DNA of 32,000 nt from an uncultured Bacilli bacterium. GTDB taxonomy: Bacteria; Bacillota_I; Bacilli_A; RF39; UBA660. A program made the translations under genes and the position numbers. A model generated the notes under the pieces. The model did no database searches. It saw nothing but the letters and a program-made list of their open reading frames with translations, and was not told the DNA's origin. Position 1 is the first letter of the stretch; each line of letters begins with the position of its first letter. The stretch is from the NCBI GenBank assembly GCA_934098505.1, contig CAKOOR010000004.1:1-32000 (forward strand), in the 5' to 3' direction. Of the stretch, positions 106 to 28,541 are shown in pieces.

Positions 106-1152
106 ATGTGTCTTTTAGATTATAACAAAAAAATAAATAAATATAAACATATAACTTATGCTGAAAGGACTATGATAGAAACTTGGTATAATTCAGATAA
201 AAAAAGTAAAAGAGAAATAGCAATATTGTTGCATAAAAGTGAAAGAACGATTAGAAGAGAAATAAATCGTGGACTAGTTATAATTAGAAATTATGATTGG
301 ACTGAAGGGGTAGAATATAGTGCAAGAGTAGCTCAAGAAAAATATGAATACGGTATGACTAGTAAAGGTCCAGCGTTAAAATTAGATCAAGATATAAAAT
401 TGGTTGAATATATTGAAAATGAGATACTGTGTAATAAGAAGTCTCCTGAAGTAGTAGCTATTCAGTTAAAAGAAAATGGATTTAATATAGAAATAAGTGG
501 TAGAACCATAAGAAATGCAATAAAAAGCGGGTTAATATTTGAAAAATTGCAAAATGGTAAAATAATATATAAAAAAGAATATAATAACAAGAATAAAGAA
601 AAGCGAGTTTCTAAAATGATACCGGCAGAAAAAAGTATTGAGCATAGGCCAAAAGAAGCGAATACAAGAGAGGAATATGGTCATTGGGAAGGAGATTTAG
701 TTGTTGGAAAGCAAGGCACAAAAACAGTTTTATTTACATTAACAGAAAGAAAAACAAGGCAAGAAATAATAATGAAACTTCCAAACAAAGAAACGAAGAC
801 AATAGCGAAAGCAGTTGATAAAATAGAAAGAAAGTATCAAGGAAGGTTTTACAAAGTCTTTAAGAGTATAACATTTGATAATGGAGTTGAATTCATGGGA
901 TATGAGGGCTTAGAAAAGTCATGCTTGAGGAAAAAGAATAGAACAAAAGTATATTATGCTCATCCTTACTGTTCTGGAGAAAGAGGAACAAACGAAAACA
1001 ATAATAGATTAATAAGAAGATGGATTCCGAAAGGAACAGATATAACAAATATAAAAGTATCATTTATAAAGCAAGTTGAAGATTGGATTAATAATTATCC
1101 GAGGTCAATATTTGAATATAAGAGTTCAAATATGATATTATTAGAAATATAA
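106..1152 (+). CDS. IS30 family DDE transposase
   Basis: 348 aa. N-terminal HTH region (ERTMIETWY..SKREIAILLHKSERTIRREI) and a DDE catalytic signature in IS30-typical context: HWEGDLV, ITFDNGVEF, GTNENNNRLIRRWIPKG. Confidence 0.92.
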   Translation: MCLLDYNKKINKYKHITYAERTMIETWYNSDKKSKREIAILLHKSERTIRREINRGLVIIRNYDWTEGVEYSARVAQEKYEYGMTSKGPALKLDQDIKLVEYIENEILCNKKSPEVVAIQLKENGFNIEISGRTIRNAIKSGLIFEKLQNGKIIYKKEYNNKNKEKRVSKMIPAEKSIEHRPKEANTREEYGHWEGDLVVGKQGTKTVLFTLTERKTRQEIIMKLPNKETKTIAKAVDKIERKYQGRFYKVFKSITFDNGVEFMGYEGLEKSCLRKKNRTKVYYAHPYCSGERGTNENNNRLIRRWIPKGTDITNIKVSFIKQVEDWINNYPRSIFEYKSSNMILLEI

Positions 1153-1289: not shown

Positions 1290-2717
1290 ATGAATAATAA
1301 TACTAATGGTAGCACAAATAATATTAATAATTTACCTAATATAAATCAAAATACCACTAATAGTCTTAATAATGTGGCTTTTAATAATGGAGTAAATAAT
1401 TCCAATATTTCGAATAATAATTCTAATAACATGATTAACAATAGTAATGTTGGCGGTGGAGTAGTTAATAACCAAGCAGTTATTTCTAACAATCAAGGAA
1501 ATATCGTTAATAGTAGTCTATTAAATAATAATCCAGTTAGTAATCCAAATAATGTAAATCAAACAATACCTAATAATAATCCTCTACCTAATCCTAATAT
1601 AAATACAGCTGTGAATTCTAATATAAAAGACCAAAATGTTAATAATGTTAATACGGAAAATAAAACCGCTAATCCAAACAATATAAAAATAGAAGAAACC
1701 AGTGTAACAAGATCACAAAAAGGAACCGTAACTATTGCTACAGTTAATGGTGGTAATGTAAGTATTTTAACTGATAAGATGCCAGAAGCAATTGATTTAA
1801 GTGTTAAAGAAGCCAAAACTATTACTAAGAATGGTAAAAAAGTTCGTATTATGACCAAAAGAGAACTAATAACTAATATCATCTTAAGTTTCTTTTTCGT
1901 ATTAGTATTATGCGGTGCTGGGTATGGCGTTTATTATTATTTATCTGGCAATAACCCTCGTAATTTTGAAACAAAAAATATAAGCATTGAGTATGGCGAG
2001 GAAATACCGGCCTCGGTTCGTAATTATATAAATTTAACAGATATTAGTGAACCTGATTATATTTTAGATACATCGGCAGTTAAAAATGAAATAGGCACTT
2101 ATACTTATAAAGTAAGTTACGGTAGCACCACTAAAACCGGAACAATAACTATAAACGATACTAAAGCCCCAGTTGTAACATTTAATGATGTAAAAGAATT
2201 TATTGAAGGCACAACTATCACTAAAGAAATGCTAGTTGCCAGTTGTGAAGATATATCTAGTTGTACTTATGATTTAACTTCTCCTGTTGATACTAATACT
2301 CCTGGTACTATAACCGCTAGCATTACAGCTAAAGATAATTTAGGTAATTCAAAAGATTATCCAATTGAACTAAATATTATAGAAAAACTAACTACTTTAG
2401 TATGTAGTAGTACTATAGTAACTACTGATGAAAATAGTAAAACTTTATTAGAAAGTAATAATTATACTTTATCATTTACAAACCAAAAACTCTTAAAAAC
2501 AGGTAATTTAAAAGTAATAAGAACTTATTTAAGTGATAGTGATTATACAAGTATAAAAGATAATTTAACTAGTAGTGGTTATACTTTAGAAGACATTAAT
2601 AGAAGAGCTATTAAAGAATCTACTATTGATAATGTTGCTAATTTAACTACACAAGATGAAATAAAAACGCATCTAGAAAGTAATAGTTATACTTGTAGTA
2701 TTAAAGATAATGAATAA
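1290..2717 (+). CDS. Membrane-anchored protein: Asn-rich low-complexity N-terminal region, one TM helix, Ig-like extracellular region
   Basis: 475-aa ORF with RBS AAGAGG 8 nt upstream. Residues 1-130 are dominated by N/S/T/P (NNNTNGSTNNINNLPNINQN...). TM helix IILSFFFVLVLCGAGYGVYYYL. The C-terminal part carries a G-x-Y-x-V-x-Y...D..GN...P pattern typical of bacterial Ig-like surface domains. Function unknown. Confidence 0.75.
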   Translation: MNNNTNGSTNNINNLPNINQNTTNSLNNVAFNNGVNNSNISNNNSNNMINNSNVGGGVVNNQAVISNNQGNIVNSSLLNNNPVSNPNNVNQTIPNNNPLPNPNINTAVNSNIKDQNVNNVNTENKTANPNNIKIEETSVTRSQKGTVTIATVNGGNVSILTDKMPEAIDLSVKEAKTITKNGKKVRIMTKRELITNIILSFFFVLVLCGAGYGVYYYLSGNNPRNFETKNISIEYGEEIPASVRNYINLTDISEPDYILDTSAVKNEIGTYTYKVSYGSTTKTGTITINDTKAPVVTFNDVKEFIEGTTITKEMLVASCEDISSCTYDLTSPVDTNTPGTITASITAKDNLGNSKDYPIELNIIEKLTTLVCSSTIVTTDENSKTLLESNNYTLSFTNQKLLKTGNLKVIRTYLSDSDYTSIKDNLTSSGYTLEDINRRAIKESTIDNVANLTTQDEIKTHLESNSYTCSIKDNE

Positions 2718-2740: not shown

Positions 2741-2758
2741 TATATATAAAAATAAAAA

Positions 2759-2785
2759 TTTCATAGAGCATATAACTCTATGAAA
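2759..2785. repeat. Recombinase-core-site-like repeat, locus A left (10-bp arm, 7-bp asymmetric spacer, 10-bp arm)
   Basis: TTTCATAGAG-CATATAA-CTCTATGAAA. It is the perfect 27/27 reverse complement of 3014..3040. Confidence 0.8.
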
Positions 2786-3013
2786 TAGAAAAATAGATAT
2801 CTATCTTTAATATATAATATAACTATAGCATATAATTAGGTTAAATTAAAGAGTTTTTATGATGTTATTATAGTCAAAATTCCCGTCAATTAAATTTTTC
2901 TTTTTATTAGGTTTTATCAGTCTTTATTTAACTTTTTGTAGTCAATTAATTAAAATCTTTTCTGGTCAAAAAATGTAGTCAAACTAGCTTTAAACTTAGT
3001 AAATACCTACTAT

Positions 3014-3040
3014 TTTCATAGAGTTATATGCTCTATGAAA
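3014..3040. repeat. Recombinase-core-site-like repeat, locus A right (inverted relative to 2759..2785)
   Basis: TTTCATAGAG-TTATATG-CTCTATGAAA. The spacer is the reverse complement of CATATAA. It lies 38 nt upstream of the ATG at 3079. Confidence 0.8.
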
Positions 3041-3078
3041 GCGTAATTTAGGATATTTATTAGATGGAGTAAGAAAGA

Positions 3079-4323
3079 ATGAAAAGATTTAATAAAGATA
3101 AGTATTTAAGAAGATTAAAATTAAAACGTATGTTGTCTAATAACTCAAGAAAAATCTATATTATTTTATTATGCCTATTATGTTTTATTATAGGTATCTA
3201 CTTTGCTCATTCTAATTTTTTTGTAAGTGAGGATCAAGAAATAATAAGAACGACAGTAGGAGATTTTACTCAAGGTGATGTCGTAATTGGTGCTTATATA
3301 GAAGGCGAGAGTTATAATCAAATTCCTGCTAAGGGTGATGGCTACGAGGCAACTAAAGTAGTATGTGATAATAATGCCAATGGGACTTGGGATAACGACA
3401 ACTGGCGAATTATAATTGACAATTTGACCATAAAAACTAAATGCAATATTTATTTTGAGTTTAAATCTAGTTATGAATTTGAATATACCGGTAATATTCA
3501 AGAATTTACAGTTCCCAAAACCGGTATTTATAAATTAGAAGTTTGGGGTGCCCAGGGAAGTGCTATATCTTCTAATACAGTGGAAAGTGGATATGGCGGT
3601 TATTCAAGTGGCTTAATAAGTTTAGCTAAAGGTAATAATATTTTTGTTGTAGTTGGTGGTCAAGGCGCAACGATTAGCAATTATTCGACAAATTATAGTG
3701 GCGGTTACAATGGTGGTGGCAATTCGCTTACAAATTCAGATACATTATGGGGAGCTGGCGGCGGCGCTACCTCAATTCAAAATATCTTAATAAATGATGG
3801 GTTACTAAAAAATTATGAAGAAAGCAAGGACAATATTTTAATAGTAGCTGGCGGTGGTGGTGGTTTTGGAACATTTCAAAGTAATAAAAATACAGGTGGC
3901 TCTGGCGGCGGTTACGTAGGTAATAATGGTACATCAAGCAATAGTTCATATGGCGTTGGTGGTAATCAATCTAGCGGTGGTCATGCAACTAATTCAATGT
4001 ATCAAGACCAATCGATTAATTCAGGAAGTTTTGGCTTGGGTGGAAATGGTAATTTAAATACTAGGACAGGTGGAACCGGTGGCGGCGGCGGTTATTATGG
4101 TGGTTCATCAAGTTATGATTACGGCAGTAGTGCTGGTGGTGGCTCTGGCTACATAGGAAACTCATTATTAAATAATAAAATCATGTATTGTTATAACTGC
4201 AACGAATCTAGTGAAACCGATATTAAAACCGTATCTACTACCTGTAATGAAGAAACCCCAACCGAAAATTGTGCAAAAAAAGGCAATGGTTATGCTAAAA
4301 TAACTTATATTGAAGAAAATTAA
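3079..4323 (+). CDS. Membrane-anchored glycine-rich protein (bacterial Gly_rich / ALK-LTK glycine-rich-domain type), paralog 1
   Basis: 414 aa. N-terminal TM anchor IYIILLCLLCFIIGIYFA. Family-typical entry motif YTGNIQEFTVPKTGIYKLEVWGAQG followed by GG-rich repeats (GGYNGGG, AGGGGGFG, GGTGGGGGYYGG, AGGGSGYIG). Cys-containing C-terminal module MYCYNCNESSETD..CNEETPTENC. Confidence 0.85.
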   Translation: MKRFNKDKYLRRLKLKRMLSNNSRKIYIILLCLLCFIIGIYFAHSNFFVSEDQEIIRTTVGDFTQGDVVIGAYIEGESYNQIPAKGDGYEATKVVCDNNANGTWDNDNWRIIIDNLTIKTKCNIYFEFKSSYEFEYTGNIQEFTVPKTGIYKLEVWGAQGSAISSNTVESGYGGYSSGLISLAKGNNIFVVVGGQGATISNYSTNYSGGYNGGGNSLTNSDTLWGAGGGATSIQNILINDGLLKNYEESKDNILIVAGGGGGFGTFQSNKNTGGSGGGYVGNNGTSSNSSYGVGGNQSSGGHATNSMYQDQSINSGSFGLGGNGNLNTRTGGTGGGGGYYGGSSSYDYGSSAGGGSGYIGNSLLNNKIMYCYNCNESSETDIKTVSTTCNEETPTENCAKKGNGYAKITYIEEN

Positions 4324-4371: not shown

Positions 4372-4414
4372 GTATCCTTAAATAATTGTTACTTTTGGTA
4401 TTAAAGATAAAAAA

Positions 4415-4440
4415 TTCATAGAGTATATAACTCTATGAAA
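4415..4440. repeat. Recombinase-core-site-like repeat, locus B left
   Basis: TTCATAGAG-TATATAA-CTCTATGAAA. It is the perfect 26/26 reverse complement of 4669..4694. Confidence 0.8.
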
Positions 4441-4668
4441 ACTATTTTTCAGTATCTATTTTTAACTTATATTACAAATATACCATATAATTAGGATTAA
4501 TTAAAGAGTTTTTAATAAACTATTATAGTCAAAATTGTAGTCATTTAATTTTAGGCTTTTTCTAGATATTATAGGACTCTAAAGCTATTTTTAATTTCAA
4601 AGAACTATTAACTTTTATGGTCAAAAAATGTAGTCAAGTTGGCTTTTAATCTAGTAAATACCTACTAT

Positions 4669-4694
4669 TTTCATAGAGTTATATACTCTATGAA
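4669..4694. repeat. Recombinase-core-site-like repeat, locus B right (inverted)
   Basis: TTTCATAGAG-TTATATA-CTCTATGAA. It lies 38 nt upstream of the ATG at 4733. Confidence 0.8.
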
Positions 4695-4732
4695 ACCATA
4701 ATTAAGGGTATTTTTACTAACGGAGGTTAAAA

Positions 4733-5935
4733 ATGAAGAAATTTAATAAAGATAAGTATTTAAGAAGATTAAAATTAAAGCGTATGTTGTCTAATAACTC
4801 AAGAAAAATTTATATTATTTTATTATGTCTATCATGTTTTATTATAGGTATCTATTTTGCTCATTCTAAGTTTTTTGTAAGTGAAGATCAAGAAATAATA
4901 AGAACGACAGTAGGCGATTTTACCCAAGGTGATGTTATAATTGGTGCTTATATTGACGGAAAAAGTAATAATAAAATTCCTGCTAAAAGTGATGGTTACG
5001 AGGCAACTAAAGTAGTATGTGATAATAATGCCAATGGTACATGGGATAACGAAAGTTGGCAAATTATAATTGATAATTTGACCATAAAAACTAAATGCAA
5101 TATTTATTTTGTTTCTAAAAATGAATATTCCTACACTGGCTATGAAGAAATTTTTACAGCTTATAAAACTGGAACTTATAAGTTAGAGGTCTGGGGTGCT
5201 CAGGGTGGTGGTACAACAACTTATCAAGGTGGCACTGGTGCTTATAGTACGGGTATTGCTTATTTAGAAAGTGGTAATAAATTATATATCAATGTCGGTG
5301 GCTCTGGCACGATAAACACATCAACAAGCAGTAGTTTTAGTTATTTAACTGGTGGTTATAATGGCGGTGGTAATAGTACAGTCGGTGGAGATCCAAATAA
5401 CTACGCTGCTGGTGGTGGTTCTGGTGGCGGTGCCACGCATATAGCCAAAGTTTCCGGTCTTTTATCGACTTTGGAAAATAATAAAGACGATATTATAATT
5501 GTTGCCGCTGGCGGCGGTGGTGCTGATACTAACTCTTATGATAGCAGTCTTTCTCATAGCGGGACTAATGGTAGTGGCATTAGTAGTTCTACTACAGCAG
5601 GCCAAAAAAATTCATGTACCATTGCCACCCAAACTACTGGTTATAGCTTTGGCCAAGGCGGTAATTATACCTCCAAGACTCATGGCGCCGGTGGCGGTGG
5701 TAGTGGCTTTTATGGCGGCGGTGGTGGCGGTATGAACGGCCCAGGATGCGGTGGTTCAAGCTACATCGGCAATTCTTTATTAAGTGATAAAGCTATGTAC
5801 TGTTATAACTGTACCGAATCTAGTGAAACTGATACAAAAACCGTATCTACTACCTGTAATGAAGAAACACCAACCGAAAATTGTGCTAAAAAAGGCAATG
5901 GTTATGCTAAAATAACGTTTATAAAAGAAAATTAA
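4733..5935 (+). CDS. Membrane-anchored glycine-rich protein (Gly_rich / ALK-type), paralog 2
   Basis: 400 aa. The first ~127 aa and last ~55 aa are nearly identical to paralog 1 (MK[RK]FNKDKYLRRLKLKRMLSNNSRKIYIILLCL... and ...YIGNSLL..K.MYCYNC.ESSETD.KTVSTTCNEETPTENCAKKGNGYAKIT). The central Gly-rich region is divergent. Motif YKLEVWGAQGGG is present. Confidence 0.85.
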   Translation: MKKFNKDKYLRRLKLKRMLSNNSRKIYIILLCLSCFIIGIYFAHSKFFVSEDQEIIRTTVGDFTQGDVIIGAYIDGKSNNKIPAKSDGYEATKVVCDNNANGTWDNESWQIIIDNLTIKTKCNIYFVSKNEYSYTGYEEIFTAYKTGTYKLEVWGAQGGGTTTYQGGTGAYSTGIAYLESGNKLYINVGGSGTINTSTSSSFSYLTGGYNGGGNSTVGGDPNNYAAGGGSGGGATHIAKVSGLLSTLENNKDDIIIVAAGGGGADTNSYDSSLSHSGTNGSGISSSTTAGQKNSCTIATQTTGYSFGQGGNYTSKTHGAGGGGSGFYGGGGGGMNGPGCGGSSYIGNSLLSDKAMYCYNCTESSETDTKTVSTTCNEETPTENCAKKGNGYAKITFIKEN

Positions 5936-5945
5936 TAAAACTTAT

Positions 5946-5991
5946 AAGAGTAATATTTTAAAATTAATAATTAGAAATATTACTCTTTTTA
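5946..5991 (+). terminator. Rho-independent terminator of paralog 2
   Basis: Perfect 12-bp stem AAGAGTAATATT (5946..5957) / AATATTACTCTT (5976..5987) followed by TTT. Confidence 0.65.
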
Positions 5992-6107
5992 AAATTTTAA
6001 AATATCATTATTCAAATTTATAAATATAATTAAAAAACTTTAAAATGATAAAATTATGTGGTATATTTATAATATATGTTAGAGATAAAACTAAAAGAAA
6101 GAATAAA

Positions 6108-6208
6108 GTTGGGTAGGAATTAAAAGATGAAATAAATTTAAAAAGTAATATTAAAATAGCGGGTGGTATTGGTACAACTAATGATCTTTATATAATTGAA
6201 AGTAGTTA
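6108..6208 (+). pseudogene. Relic of the 3' end of a paralog of the 6250..7785 gene
   Basis: Translation of 6127..6208 gives DEINLKSNIKIAGGIGTTNDLYIIESS*. This aligns with the C-terminus of the downstream gene, VFNLKADTLAQGSGTASDPYRISS*, on the shared pattern NLK....A.G.GT..D.Y.I.SS-stop. There is no ORF upstream of it and the reading frame is broken around 6108..6126. Confidence 0.35.
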
Positions 6209-6249
6209 AATAATTTAAATAAATTATAATAAGATAAAGGAGATAGAAA

Positions 6250-7785
6250 ATGACAAAGAAAAATATAATATTTATAAGTGTATCTTTAATACTACTTATG
6301 TTATTAGGAATAGGAGTATCCTATTCTATGTGGATTTTGACTGTAAGTCAAACTGGGGTTAATACGGCTTATTCTAAGTGTTTTGATTTAAGTATAACTA
6401 ATAAAGAAAATAATATTTCATTAGAAAATGCTTATCCTATTACTAATGAAAAGGGTAAGAGCTTAACACCTTTTACTTTTACAATAACTAATACTTGTGA
6501 TATTAATGCTAGTTATAATATTAATTTAGAAAGTTTAAATGGTACTACTTTAAAAGCTGATTATCTAGATATAATGTTAGATAGTAATGAACCTAAGAGA
6601 TTAAATAGTTATTCTACTGCTACTTTAGTTAATAATGATAGTATTGATTCTAGAAACTTAACTAGTGGTATTTTAGATAGTGGTAAGTCTAAAAGTTTTT
6701 CTCTTCGTATTTGGATAGATTATAATACGACTTTAGCTGATTTAGAGAATTCTACTAAGTTATTTAAAGGTAAAATAATTGTAGTTGGTACTCCTACTAA
6801 TGAGTCTGAACCAATAATTAATAAGATTATTTCTCAGTTAGATACTTCTGGTAAGTGTCCAACGGTAAATGAAGATGGTTCGGTAAATGTAACTGGTGTT
6901 GAGGCAACAGATGGTTACTTATGTAAAGCCAAAGATGCTTATGGTGATTCCTATTATTATCGTGGTAATGTAACAAATAACTATGTGAAGTTTGCTGATA
7001 AATATTGGCGAATTGTTCGTATTAATGGTGATGGAACTGTTCGTGTTATTTATGATGGTACAAGTGCCCATACCAATGGAGAGTCAAGTAGTGATCGTCA
7101 AATTGGTACTAGTGCGTTTAATAGTAGTTATAATGATAATGCTTATGTTGGTTATATGTATGGTGCCACTGGTGCCTCAACGTATGCAGCAGCTCATGCA
7201 AATACCAATGATTCAACAATCAAAACTTACATAGATAATTGGTATAAAACGAATATTTTAGGAACTGCCAATGAACAATATTTGGCTGATAATGTTTTTT
7301 GTAATGATCGTTCAATAAGTACGTATACCACAAGTTCAAATACAAAACTGGGTTATGGAACTAATTCAACATATTATAGATGGGCATATGGTCCATGGAA
7401 CGGTACAAACTATGGTAATATGAAAATGATGTTAACATGTCCACAACAAAATGATGCCTTTACAGTAAGTGATACTACTAATGGTAATGGGGCTTTAACG
7501 TATCCAATAGGCCTTTTGAGTACAGACGAAATAGCACTAGCCGGTGGATGGAACGAAGAAAATAGTGGTTATTACCTATACTCTGGGCAAGCTTGGTGGG
7601 CTTCCTCGCCGTACTACTTCGGTGGTAACTACGCTAGCGTGCGTCGCGTGGATTCGGGTGGCTATGCGAACCACAGCAACAACGTGGGCGACGCTCGCGG
7701 GGTTCGGCCAGTTTTCAATCTGAAGGCTGATACACTGGCACAAGGCTCAGGGACAGCATCTGACCCATATCGCATTTCTTCGTAG
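6250..7785 (+). CDS. Membrane-anchored surface protein with C-terminal DUF6273-like (WW..SP ... GVRP) ligand-binding-type module
   Basis: 511 aa, RBS AAAGGAG. N-terminal anchor IIFISVSLILLMLLGIGVSY. The C-terminal ~280 aa carry the ordered motifs YWRIVRINGDGTVRVIYDG, YIDNWY, LLSTDEIALAGG, AWWASSP and GVRPVFNL. The name DUF6273 is from memory and has not been verified. Confidence 0.8.
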   Translation: MTKKNIIFISVSLILLMLLGIGVSYSMWILTVSQTGVNTAYSKCFDLSITNKENNISLENAYPITNEKGKSLTPFTFTITNTCDINASYNINLESLNGTTLKADYLDIMLDSNEPKRLNSYSTATLVNNDSIDSRNLTSGILDSGKSKSFSLRIWIDYNTTLADLENSTKLFKGKIIVVGTPTNESEPIINKIISQLDTSGKCPTVNEDGSVNVTGVEATDGYLCKAKDAYGDSYYYRGNVTNNYVKFADKYWRIVRINGDGTVRVIYDGTSAHTNGESSSDRQIGTSAFNSSYNDNAYVGYMYGATGASTYAAAHANTNDSTIKTYIDNWYKTNILGTANEQYLADNVFCNDRSISTYTTSSNTKLGYGTNSTYYRWAYGPWNGTNYGNMKMMLTCPQQNDAFTVSDTTNGNGALTYPIGLLSTDEIALAGGWNEENSGYYLYSGQAWWASSPYYFGGNYASVRRVDSGGYANHSNNVGDARGVRPVFNLKADTLAQGSGTASDPYRISS

Positions 7786-27791: not shown

Positions 27792-28541
27792 CTATATATT
27801 ACTTATGTCTATTTTAGTGAATAGCTTATTTATATTTTTTTCATCAATTTCAAATGTGGTTCCCTTATCTTGGATTTTTCCATATTTTTCCTGAGAAGTA
27901 TAAAAAGAAATCTTCATATTTATTCCAATATCACCAGTGGAAATTAAATCTAAAAAGCAATCAAAACTTCTTAATTTGTATAATTTAAAATTATGATATT
28001 TAAAATAAACATCATCTTTATATTTCTTCTTTTCTACTGGAATTAAAGCCAAATAATTTAGTTTCATATTTAAACGATTTTCCAATTGTTCAAAAGACCA
28101 AGAAATATTTTTATTGATATAATTTGTATACCTGTTTTTAACAACCAACCATATTTTTTTATGAACTTTATCAACTTCTAATTTAAATTCTTTAAATAAG
28201 CCAATTTTGGTAAATTTATTACCGTAAATTTTGCCAAAAAATACTTTATACTTTCGATCTTTCCTACTAGGCCAACCATATCGAATTAAAATTTCTTTAA
28301 GCGCTAGTGGTCTATTATCAGGAACCATTGAGAAAAGGCCAATATGAGGTTCACTATATAAAAATTTAGTTTTTAACTCGATTCCATAATAATCAGCAAT
28401 AATTAAATTATCATCTTCTTTACCTAACAAATTTTCTAACATTTTACCAGCGGCACTTGTACCTTTTTCTGTATTTTTAATCCAATTTTTACATTGAATT
28501 TTATAAAACTCTATTTTTAATTTTTTAATATTATCATTCAT
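27792..28541 (-). CDS. PD-(D/E)xK nuclease of the MvaI/BcnI-MutH-Sau3AI type (putative type II restriction endonuclease)
   Basis: 249 aa. RBS AGGAGG. GTSAAGKMLENLLGKEDDNLIIADYYGIELKTK gives D50-x4-E55-x-K57. This is the same spacing as the D-x4-E-x-K catalytic triad I recall for BcnI, and the G..G...E.llG.......D..giELK pattern is shared with MutH. Size is similar to BcnI and MvaI. Confidence 0.6.
   Translation of the reverse strand: MNDNIKKLKIEFYKIQCKNWIKNTEKGTSAAGKMLENLLGKEDDNLIIADYYGIELKTKFLYSEPHIGLFSMVPDNRPLALKEILIRYGWPSRKDRKYKVFFGKIYGNKFTKIGLFKEFKLEVDKVHKKIWLVVKNRYTNYINKNISWSFEQLENRLNMKLNYLALIPVEKKKYKDDVYFKYHNFKLYKLRSFDCFLDLISTGDIGINMKISFYTSQEKYGKIQDKGTTFEIDEKNINKLFTKIDISNI

Follow-up and report, generated by a model that had tools for sequence, protein, structure and literature searches.

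Candidate promoter-inversion switches with matched pairs of lox-like sites upstream of surface-protein genes in uncultured gut Bacilli

Introduction

Does the short interval upstream of a glycine-rich surface-protein gene invert in the chromosome of an uncultured gut bacterium, and if it does, what would the inversion control and which enzyme would carry it out? The question is raised by a stretch of 32,000 nucleotides (the window, hereafter) from a lineage which we take to be one of the small-genome, RF39-like gut Bacilli. These hosts are uncultured, their biology is almost unknown and they are common in human guts, those of the Hadza included. A first-pass annotation of the window had proposed that two head-to-head recombination sites enclose an invertible promoter segment directly upstream of a gene that we call gene 1.

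Two kinds of known systems frame the question. In Cre/loxP and FLP/FRT, inverted arms surround an asymmetric overlap of 7-8 bp, the spacer alone sets the orientation of the site, and only sites with identical spacers recombine. In the fimS switch of E. coli, the tyrosine recombinases FimB and FimE invert a promoter segment of about 300 bp and thereby turn a surface structure ON or OFF.

Results and Discussion

Two candidate switches in the window

The window holds two switches of the same layout (Table 1), the second of which had been missed at first. The two 27-bp sites of switch 1 are exact inverted copies with a 10-7-10 organization, which were also picked up as an inverted repeat, and the sequence confirmed what had been annotated there: the sites lie head to head, their spacers CATATAA and TTATATG are reverse complements, 228 bp are bracketed between them, and 38 nt separate the right site from the ATG of gene 1 at position 3079. 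In switch 2, the corresponding distance to the start of gene 2 is 37 nt. When the full site pattern was searched with up to three mismatches, the window gave four matches, where 100 shuffles led to an expectation of 0.00. The outer spacer position reads C..G in switch 1 and T..A in switch 2, having changed on both partners together; the arms carry no mismatch in one unit and a single one in the other, and the spacers are perfectly matched in both. The inner segments are direct paralogues with about 72% ungapped identity, and the idea that they might be mutual flips was rejected, no reverse-complement similarity being found between them. Thus each switch has the arrangement of an inverton, an inverted pair around a short segment directly upstream of a gene, and the arms together with the matched overlap support the view that the sites would behave like a simple tyrosine-recombinase core of the lox, FRT or dif type.

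Table 1. Coordinates of the switches, their promoter elements and the surrounding genes in the window
Feature	Position	Strand	Description
IS30-type transposase	106..1152		HTH_38 + rve; directly upstream of the locus
A-run on the + strand	2748..2758	-	T-run after the distal-site hairpin; looks like a terminator tail for leftward transcripts
Switch 1, gene-distal core site	2759..2785		TTTCATAGAG / CATATAA / CTCTATGAAA; 10-bp inverted arms, 7-bp asymmetric spacer
Switch 1, invertible segment	2786..3013		228 bp; member of an alignable cassette family
Switch 1, putative extended -10	2822..2830	-	TGCTATAGT; 36 nt from the inner edge of the distal site, directed leftward from gene 1
Switch 1, putative weak -35	2845-2850	-	TTTAAT
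Switch 1, gene-proximal core site	3014..3040		TTTCATAGAG / TTATATG / CTCTATGAAA; exact reverse complement of the distal site
Gene 1	3079..4323	+	414 aa, membrane-anchored, glycine-rich, PF12810 (ALK_LTK_GRD); taken as the controlled gene
Switch 2, gene-distal core site	4414..4440		ATTCATAGAG / TATATAA / CTCTATGAAA
Switch 2, invertible segment	4441..4668		228 bp; orientation as in switch 1
Switch 2, putative extended -10	4477-4485	-	TGGTATATT; directed away from gene 2
Switch 2, gene-proximal core site	4669..4695		TTTCATAGAG / TTATATA / CTCTATGAAA
Gene 2	4733..5935	+	400 aa, membrane-anchored, glycine-rich paralogue of gene 1, PF12810
Putative fixed promoter facing gene 3	6039..6067	+	TTTAAA - 17 nt - TATATT, TG before; TGGTATATT at 6059-6067
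Gene 3	6250..7785	+	pilin-like N-terminus, weak DUF6273 match

The proteins encoded by genes 1 and 2 are about 90% identical at their N- and C-termini and have diverged in their centres. No serine or tyrosine recombinase was found among the ORFs of the window, where the only DNA-breaking enzyme of that sort is the IS30-type transposase, just as the first-pass annotation had it. The transposase gene was also observed at the matching place in two other assemblies (L001 and L002).

A cassette family with pair-specific spacers

We scanned one genome per species with the pattern TTCATAGAG-N7-CTCTATGAA, which matched at least 110 stretches, and in these species-representative genomes the cassette was recovered at least 101 further times beyond the two copies of the window. 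The matches belong almost entirely to a clade of gut MAGs that go by the names uncultured Bacilli/Tenericutes or "Mycoplasma sp. CAG:956". Exact arms yielded at least 56 close pairs, and up to four arm mismatches yielded at least 103, the window's two included. Among the matches listed, about 200 sites have near-invariant arms and variable spacer positions 2-6, all 58 exact-pair cassettes can be aligned as a single family, and the partner spacers are exact reverse complements in 101 of the 103 pairs and direct repeats in none. Spacers that vary between switches and agree within them bear out the earlier reading of the sites as tyrosine-recombinase cores. They take at least 39 canonical forms, with mostly T at position 1, mostly A at position 7 and a free middle, and all seven positions are matched between partners, not merely a central dinucleotide. 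The inner segments measure either 225-228 bp or 235-239 bp, two size classes that differ by about one helical turn.

The number of switches reaches at least 25 in one genome (CAKOSN), at least 20 in a second (CAKOMH) and at least 14 in a third (CAKOMC). Spacers within a genome are mostly distinct; several genomes share one spacer among 2-4 switches, and the insulation between switches is thus incomplete. The target gene starts 1-100 nt past one of the sites and encodes a protein with a basic, hydrophobic N-terminus, either glycine-rich (of one family with a MKKFNKDKYL-type N-terminus or of a second with a different one) or pilin-like. This suggests that dozens of flip-switches serve membrane-anchored surface proteins of three or four families, an investment that points to intense selection by phage or host immunity.

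Some arrangements within the family are more complex. In L019, two tandem paralogous switches (7-297 and 1892-2182) have a common spacer, GTTAAAA/TTTTAAC, and stand in opposite states; with shared spacers of this kind, recombination between switches could occur. On the distal side of some switches (L011, L085, L022, L089, L090, L096 and L043) we observed a second gene heading away, which in L011 and L085 encodes a small HTH-like protein (MIDIEKRIIGLIKQGK...). Inversion of such switches might toggle two divergent genes.

A short, non-coding, multi-copy unit of 282 bp that ends in inverted repeats of 27-36 bp also resembles a MITE, perhaps mobilised by the IS30-family transposase encoded nearby. 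However, none of the 103 copies is flanked by a direct duplication of 3-8 bp, the copies are always found just upstream of a few surface-protein gene families, at a set distance, and transposition leaves unexplained why copy-specific spacers should be mirrored at both ends. Collections of phages and plasmids gave no record similar to the cassette. We regard a MITE origin of the unit as extremely unlikely.

Orthologous cassettes in opposite orientations

Several orthologous cassettes differ in the orientation of their inner segment (L058 compared with L018, L092 and L081; L088 with L028; L117 with L029). The flanks on both sides remain collinear (84-96% identical) and neither 27-bp site has changed, while the inner segment aligns over its full length only as the reverse complement, with 86-92% identity. 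In three orthologous comparisons the orientation breaks at the first base inside each site, which matches the product expected of conservative recombination within the sites. The first-pass annotation had taken the two sites as partners that bracket an invertible segment, and a clean inversion with its breakpoints at the site edges is indeed what separates these orthologues.

Contig ends point the same way. Five contigs of one Hadza MAG assembled with k=77 (L014, L036, L069, L078 and L094) end exactly at a site edge, and two short contigs carrying recombinase genes, L127 (P0001) and L124 (P0002), also stop exactly there. L128 is a contig with inverted sites at both of its ends. Since the repeat is shorter than k, assembly breaks at site edges are expected from a population of mixed orientation, and these ends are indirect evidence that both orientations coexisted in the sample.

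Could the palindromes nevertheless be static, either as operators at which a dimeric repressor would loop the DNA, the alternative that the first-pass annotation had raised, or as RNA elements such as terminators or a 27-bp long-range helix in the leader? Every site folds into a stable hairpin of 10-11 bp, the distal ones score as terminators, and the complementarity of partner spacers would also suit a long-range helix. Looping operators are contradicted by the inverted orthologues and give no reason for matched spacers that are specific to each pair. As for a helix, which tolerates G-U pairs, the spacers of 101 of the 103 pairs are exact Watson-Crick partners in which no G-U pair is needed, and a search of known RNA families (Rfam) gave no significant match to the cassette. 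Neither kind of static element predicts the inverted orthologues, the contig breaks at site edges or the linkage to tyrosine recombinases described below, and we consider both very improbable.

For the window's own copies, the evidence of inversion comes by way of the family. No flipped copy was found in seven assemblies (L001-L007), in which both switches are 100% identical and in the orientation of the window, and a scan of JGI metagenomes for the YATATAA spacer yielded two contigs, both of other species. Proteins identical to those of genes 1 and 2 are encoded on human-gut metagenome contigs, Hadza samples included. Many contigs pass unbroken through the window's switches, and 17 index blocks hold contigs of 50-200 kb across the locus. 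It might be argued that the family truly inverts and that these two copies are evolutionary relics, or invert at so low a rate as to be in effect locked OFF: the seven assemblies come from different samples and agree on one orientation, the long contigs run through the locus, and gene 3 shows that a switch can be lost and leave a fixed promoter behind. Yet the arms (none and one mismatch) and the spacers are intact, which would be unexpected once selection for recombination had stopped, and consensus assemblies display only the majority orientation, a state shared by 77 of the 85 scorable family members among the matches listed. Such locking seems improbable to us, and we infer that the two copies in the window still flip.

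A conserved promoter-like element and a possible terminator at the distal site

The first-pass annotation had considered a promoter inside the segment, pointing away from the gene, with a TTGAC(TAC) motif as a -35-like box. Its position and direction are supported by a conserved extended -10 element; the -35 assignment was rejected, there being no suitably spaced -10 on that strand and the repeats that contain the motif recurring in recombinase-carrying segments without such a promoter role. Among the matches listed, a -10-like match falls in one alignment column in all 58 exact-pair cassettes, a TGnTA[TA]AnT motif lies 35-37 nt from one inner edge and is directed at it in 92 of 103 pairs (at exactly 36 nt in 80 of them), and this element faces away from the gene in 77 of 85 scorable switches and toward it in the other 8. 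In switch 1, the extended -10 TGCTATAGT is likely to be the promoter.

Transcripts starting there would meet the distal site. A terminator-like score was obtained at 2786-2758 on the - strand, with the tail TTTTATTTTT and a hairpin fold z of -4.9, and the distal site of switch 2 is terminator-like on the - strand too. At least six T in the 9 nt past the site were found at 27 of 91 promoter-facing sites compared with 3 of 91 other sites, among the matches listed. The pattern of a hairpin followed by a U-run, present at the distal sites on the - strand, is absent from the proximal ones, which fits termination as a secondary role of the distal site rather than the primary identity of the site pair.

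A third instance of the promoter-like element is fixed. Gene 3 has no sites in the window, whereas its relatives in other genomes usually have a switch, and the interval 5936-6249 upstream of it carries a putative promoter that faces gene 3 and aligns over about 40 nt with the invertible one, to which it is homologous. Gene 3 with this site-less promoter appears to represent a former switch that became locked in the ON state.

The conserved promoter directed away from the gene, the asymmetry of the T-runs and the fixed copy facing gene 3 together lead us to read both switches of the window as probably OFF, with their promoters directed away from genes 1 and 2. A mostly silent repertoire would plausibly suit a family of variable antigens. 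The states might also be reversed, so that the present majority is ON through another promoter or read-through and the flipped form is OFF, for instance by orientation-dependent termination as in C. difficile cwpV. About 90% of the switches are in the present orientation, the upstream genes are often co-directional (in the window as well), and TATAGT hexamers in the GTCA repeats give weak promoter-like matches on the + strand in 19 of 58 cassettes. But the sole promoter element whose position is strongly conserved is directed away from the gene, its fixed homologue faces gene 3, T-run terminators are enriched past the site that the promoter faces (27 against 3), and a mostly-OFF state is normal for large families of variable antigens. 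We therefore judge the reversed assignment to be unlikely, and keep the reading of the present orientation as OFF.

The 4-5 motif copies in the same orientation that had been noted inside the segment were located as five GTCAA-type repeats on the + strand of 2871..2983: TAGTCAAA at 2871, CCGTCAAT at 2883, TAGTCAAT at 2939, TGGTCAAA at 2963 and TAGTCAAA again at 2976. They include two tandem pairs with a period of 12-13 bp and are conserved in the cassette family. Similar GTCA pairs with a 12-bp period lie near the ends of invertible segments that carry a recombinase gene (L128, L026, L042 and L101). As the repeats go with this recombinase family, also in segments whose cargo is its own gene, we consider the GTAGTCAA copies better explained as accessory (arm-type) sites of the recombinase than as -35 boxes.

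In many cassettes, a near-palindrome, sCGAAAWTTCGs, directly borders the distal site on its inner side and the proximal site on its outer side (3041-3052 and 4696-4707 in the window). With this placement the context of a site differs between the two orientations, which might bias the direction of switching.

A candidate recombinase in related genomes

All ORFs in the loci were screened for recombinase motifs, followed by phmmer and Pfam searches, the whole being aimed at the tyrosine class. Tyrosine recombinases (PF00589 + PF14659) adjoin sites of this kind in five lineages. The distance between the gene and a switch is 177 nt in L008 and 143 nt in L107 ("Mycoplasma sp. CAG:956"), and the protein of this type has the sequence MGRKGESIFKRKDGRYEARY...; in L026, a Clostridia MAG from goat, the recombinase is encoded between inverted sites 1466 bp apart; in L073 and L116 it is found beside sites, and in L124 and L127 proteins with both domains are encoded next to or inside site pairs. 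The P0012 clade, 51% identical, is represented by a 1368-bp contig both ends of which are inverted TTCACAAAG-TATAAAA-CTGTGTGAA sites. No serine invertase of the Hin, Gin or Mpi type was found in the window, and the recombinases that this tyrosine-aimed screen detected beside sites were all of the tyrosine class.

By sequence, the closest solved structures are those of Tn1549 Int (6EMY and 6EMZ, E = 1e-15), and the N-terminus gave a weak match, below threshold (E = 0.09), to the arm-DNA-binding domain of Tn916 Int (PF02920). A close homologue, P0003, is encoded among housekeeping genes, and no sites were found within 4 kb of P0003 or of P0018. Since sites and recombinase are linked across bacterial classes, this relative of the Tn916 and Tn1549 enzymes, known from related genomes and encoded outside the window, is the best candidate; its action on the cassette sites is what we infer from that linkage.

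Other assignments were considered and set aside. XerC, XerD, XerS, the integron integrase and the FimB/E-type invertase all scored far below the cut-offs as the family of this recombinase, and a XerC/D-like gene in L065 was judged to be a housekeeping gene lying nearby by coincidence.

Two further arrangements of recombinase genes were observed. In L008 (1227..2309, - strand) and L107 (3089..4171, - strand), the recombinase gene is divergent to the switch, whose assembled promoter is directed toward it; the gene has a TGCTATAAT promoter of its own and a T-rich stretch follows the site, and orientation-dependent read-through into the recombinase gene is possible but doubtful. In L128 (1-1368) and L026 (3905-5397), from other Firmicutes, related recombinase genes lie inside their own invertible segments. 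The arms TTCACAAAG and CTGTGTGAA of L128 differ from those of the cassette, the spacer is again 7 bp, and none of the 75 sequences in its cluster is assembled past 1.4 kb.

A model for independent promoter flipping

We think it highly probable that each unit is a phase-variation switch in which a tyrosine recombinase encoded in trans inverts a 228-bp promoter segment. In this model, the enzyme, encoded elsewhere in the genome, would bind the two 27-bp core sites as dimers, and strand exchange across the 7-bp spacer would invert the segment between them. In the present orientation the promoter would fire leftward and be stopped by the hairpin and T-run of the distal site, leaving the gene OFF; inversion would instead direct it to the right, through the proximal site, where a T-run is lacking, and into the gene for the glycine-rich surface protein, turning that gene ON. 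Partner sites must have the same spacer, and since the spacers are largely specific to each switch, one recombinase could work many promoters (at least 25 in a single genome among relatives) independently of one another.

A more elaborate version can be offered tentatively, as possible but somewhat short of probable. In it, a single domesticated integrase of Tn916/Tn1549 type would independently toggle at least 25 promoters in a small genome, with dozens of switch-specific 7-bp overlaps curbing cross-talk, the 4-5 GTCA repeats assembling the synapse, and relatives of the enzyme flipping their own segments in other Firmicutes.

Relation to known inversion systems

The fimS system of E. coli comprises one switch, dedicated recombinases encoded next to it, repeats of 9 bp and accessory sites for IHF and Lrp, in contrast to the dozens of switches per genome, the 27-bp lox-like sites and the distant recombinase described here. 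Heterospecific sets such as lox511, lox2272, F3 and F5 are man-made, whereas at least 39 natural spacers are spread over the switches of this clade, and the candidate recombinase is of the Tn916/Tn1549 Int type, unlike Cre and Flp. The Tn916 and Tn1549 integrases provide its closest solved structures by sequence, and possible arm-type repeats are present here. However, the gene lies outside a conjugative element, appears to serve inversion rather than integration and excision, and is associated with symmetric sites that have a 7-bp spacer.

Among surface-protein systems, mpl (P35) of M. penetrans is similar in that individual invertible promoters control a surface-protein family, and both hosts come from the former Tenericutes. 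The mpl segment is reportedly about 135 bp long with 12-bp repeats, compared with 27-bp sites with symmetric 10-bp arms and a segment of 225-239 bp here, and both the site sequence and the recombinase clade differ. The mpl targets are lipoproteins, whereas the cassette targets, known from sequence alone, are glycine-rich and pilin-like membrane-anchored proteins. The mpl genes are described as a large, dispersed surface-gene family with an invertible promoter and short inverted repeats for each gene, most genes being OFF at once and the tyrosine recombinases, encoded elsewhere, acting in trans (PMC2268961, citing Horino et al. 2003).

In C. difficile, a Firmicute, one tyrosine recombinase, RecV, acts in trans on several invertible segments upstream of surface and motility genes (cwpV, flgB, cmrRST and pdcB) (PMC7446863, PMC9286219, PMC5903667). 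Those switches number fewer than ten, have dissimilar repeats and in some cases act after initiation through Rho or a terminator, whereas the cassettes described here form a single uniform family in which the arms are conserved and the putative promoter is internal. In the gut commensal Bacteroides, recombinases that act globally, the serine enzyme Mpi or the tyrosine enzymes Tsr, invert many promoters of surface structures (PMC2268961, PMC8748976). The Bacteroides systems belong to another phylum, have another repeat consensus and control capsule operons; Mpi is also of another recombinase class.

Our literature search returned no paper that ties this lineage or the site motif to DNA inversion. 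Invertible-promoter phase variation is a known mechanism, while the site, the recombinase clade, the host lineage, the targets and the scale appear to be undescribed in the searchable literature. The natural repertoire of overlap sequences specific to each switch is the most distinctive feature. If the model is true, this multiplexed system would be a natural counterpart of the engineered heterospecific lox and FRT sets, and one arm sequence with many mutually exclusive 7-bp overlaps and a candidate recombinase could provide synthetic biology with a toolbox of orthogonal sites. The switches also offer a direct measure of population heterogeneity from metagenomic reads.

Other features of the window

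Upstream of switch 1, the ORF at 1290..2717 encodes a protein of 475 aa whose N-terminal third is of low complexity and very rich in asparagine and which has a transmembrane segment in its centre; no match to it was found in Pfam or NCBIfam, and relatives are encoded upstream of switches in L027 and L071. At 27792..28541 on the - strand lies a gene for a restriction endonuclease of the MvaI/BcnI family, with no obvious DNA methyltransferase gene adjoining it. Between 14202 and 20071, two large paralogues of 659 and 638 aa, with nearly identical C-terminal halves, are encoded on either side of a small ORF and a DUF2201 metallopeptidase/VWA-like gene, and together they may form a defence-type module.
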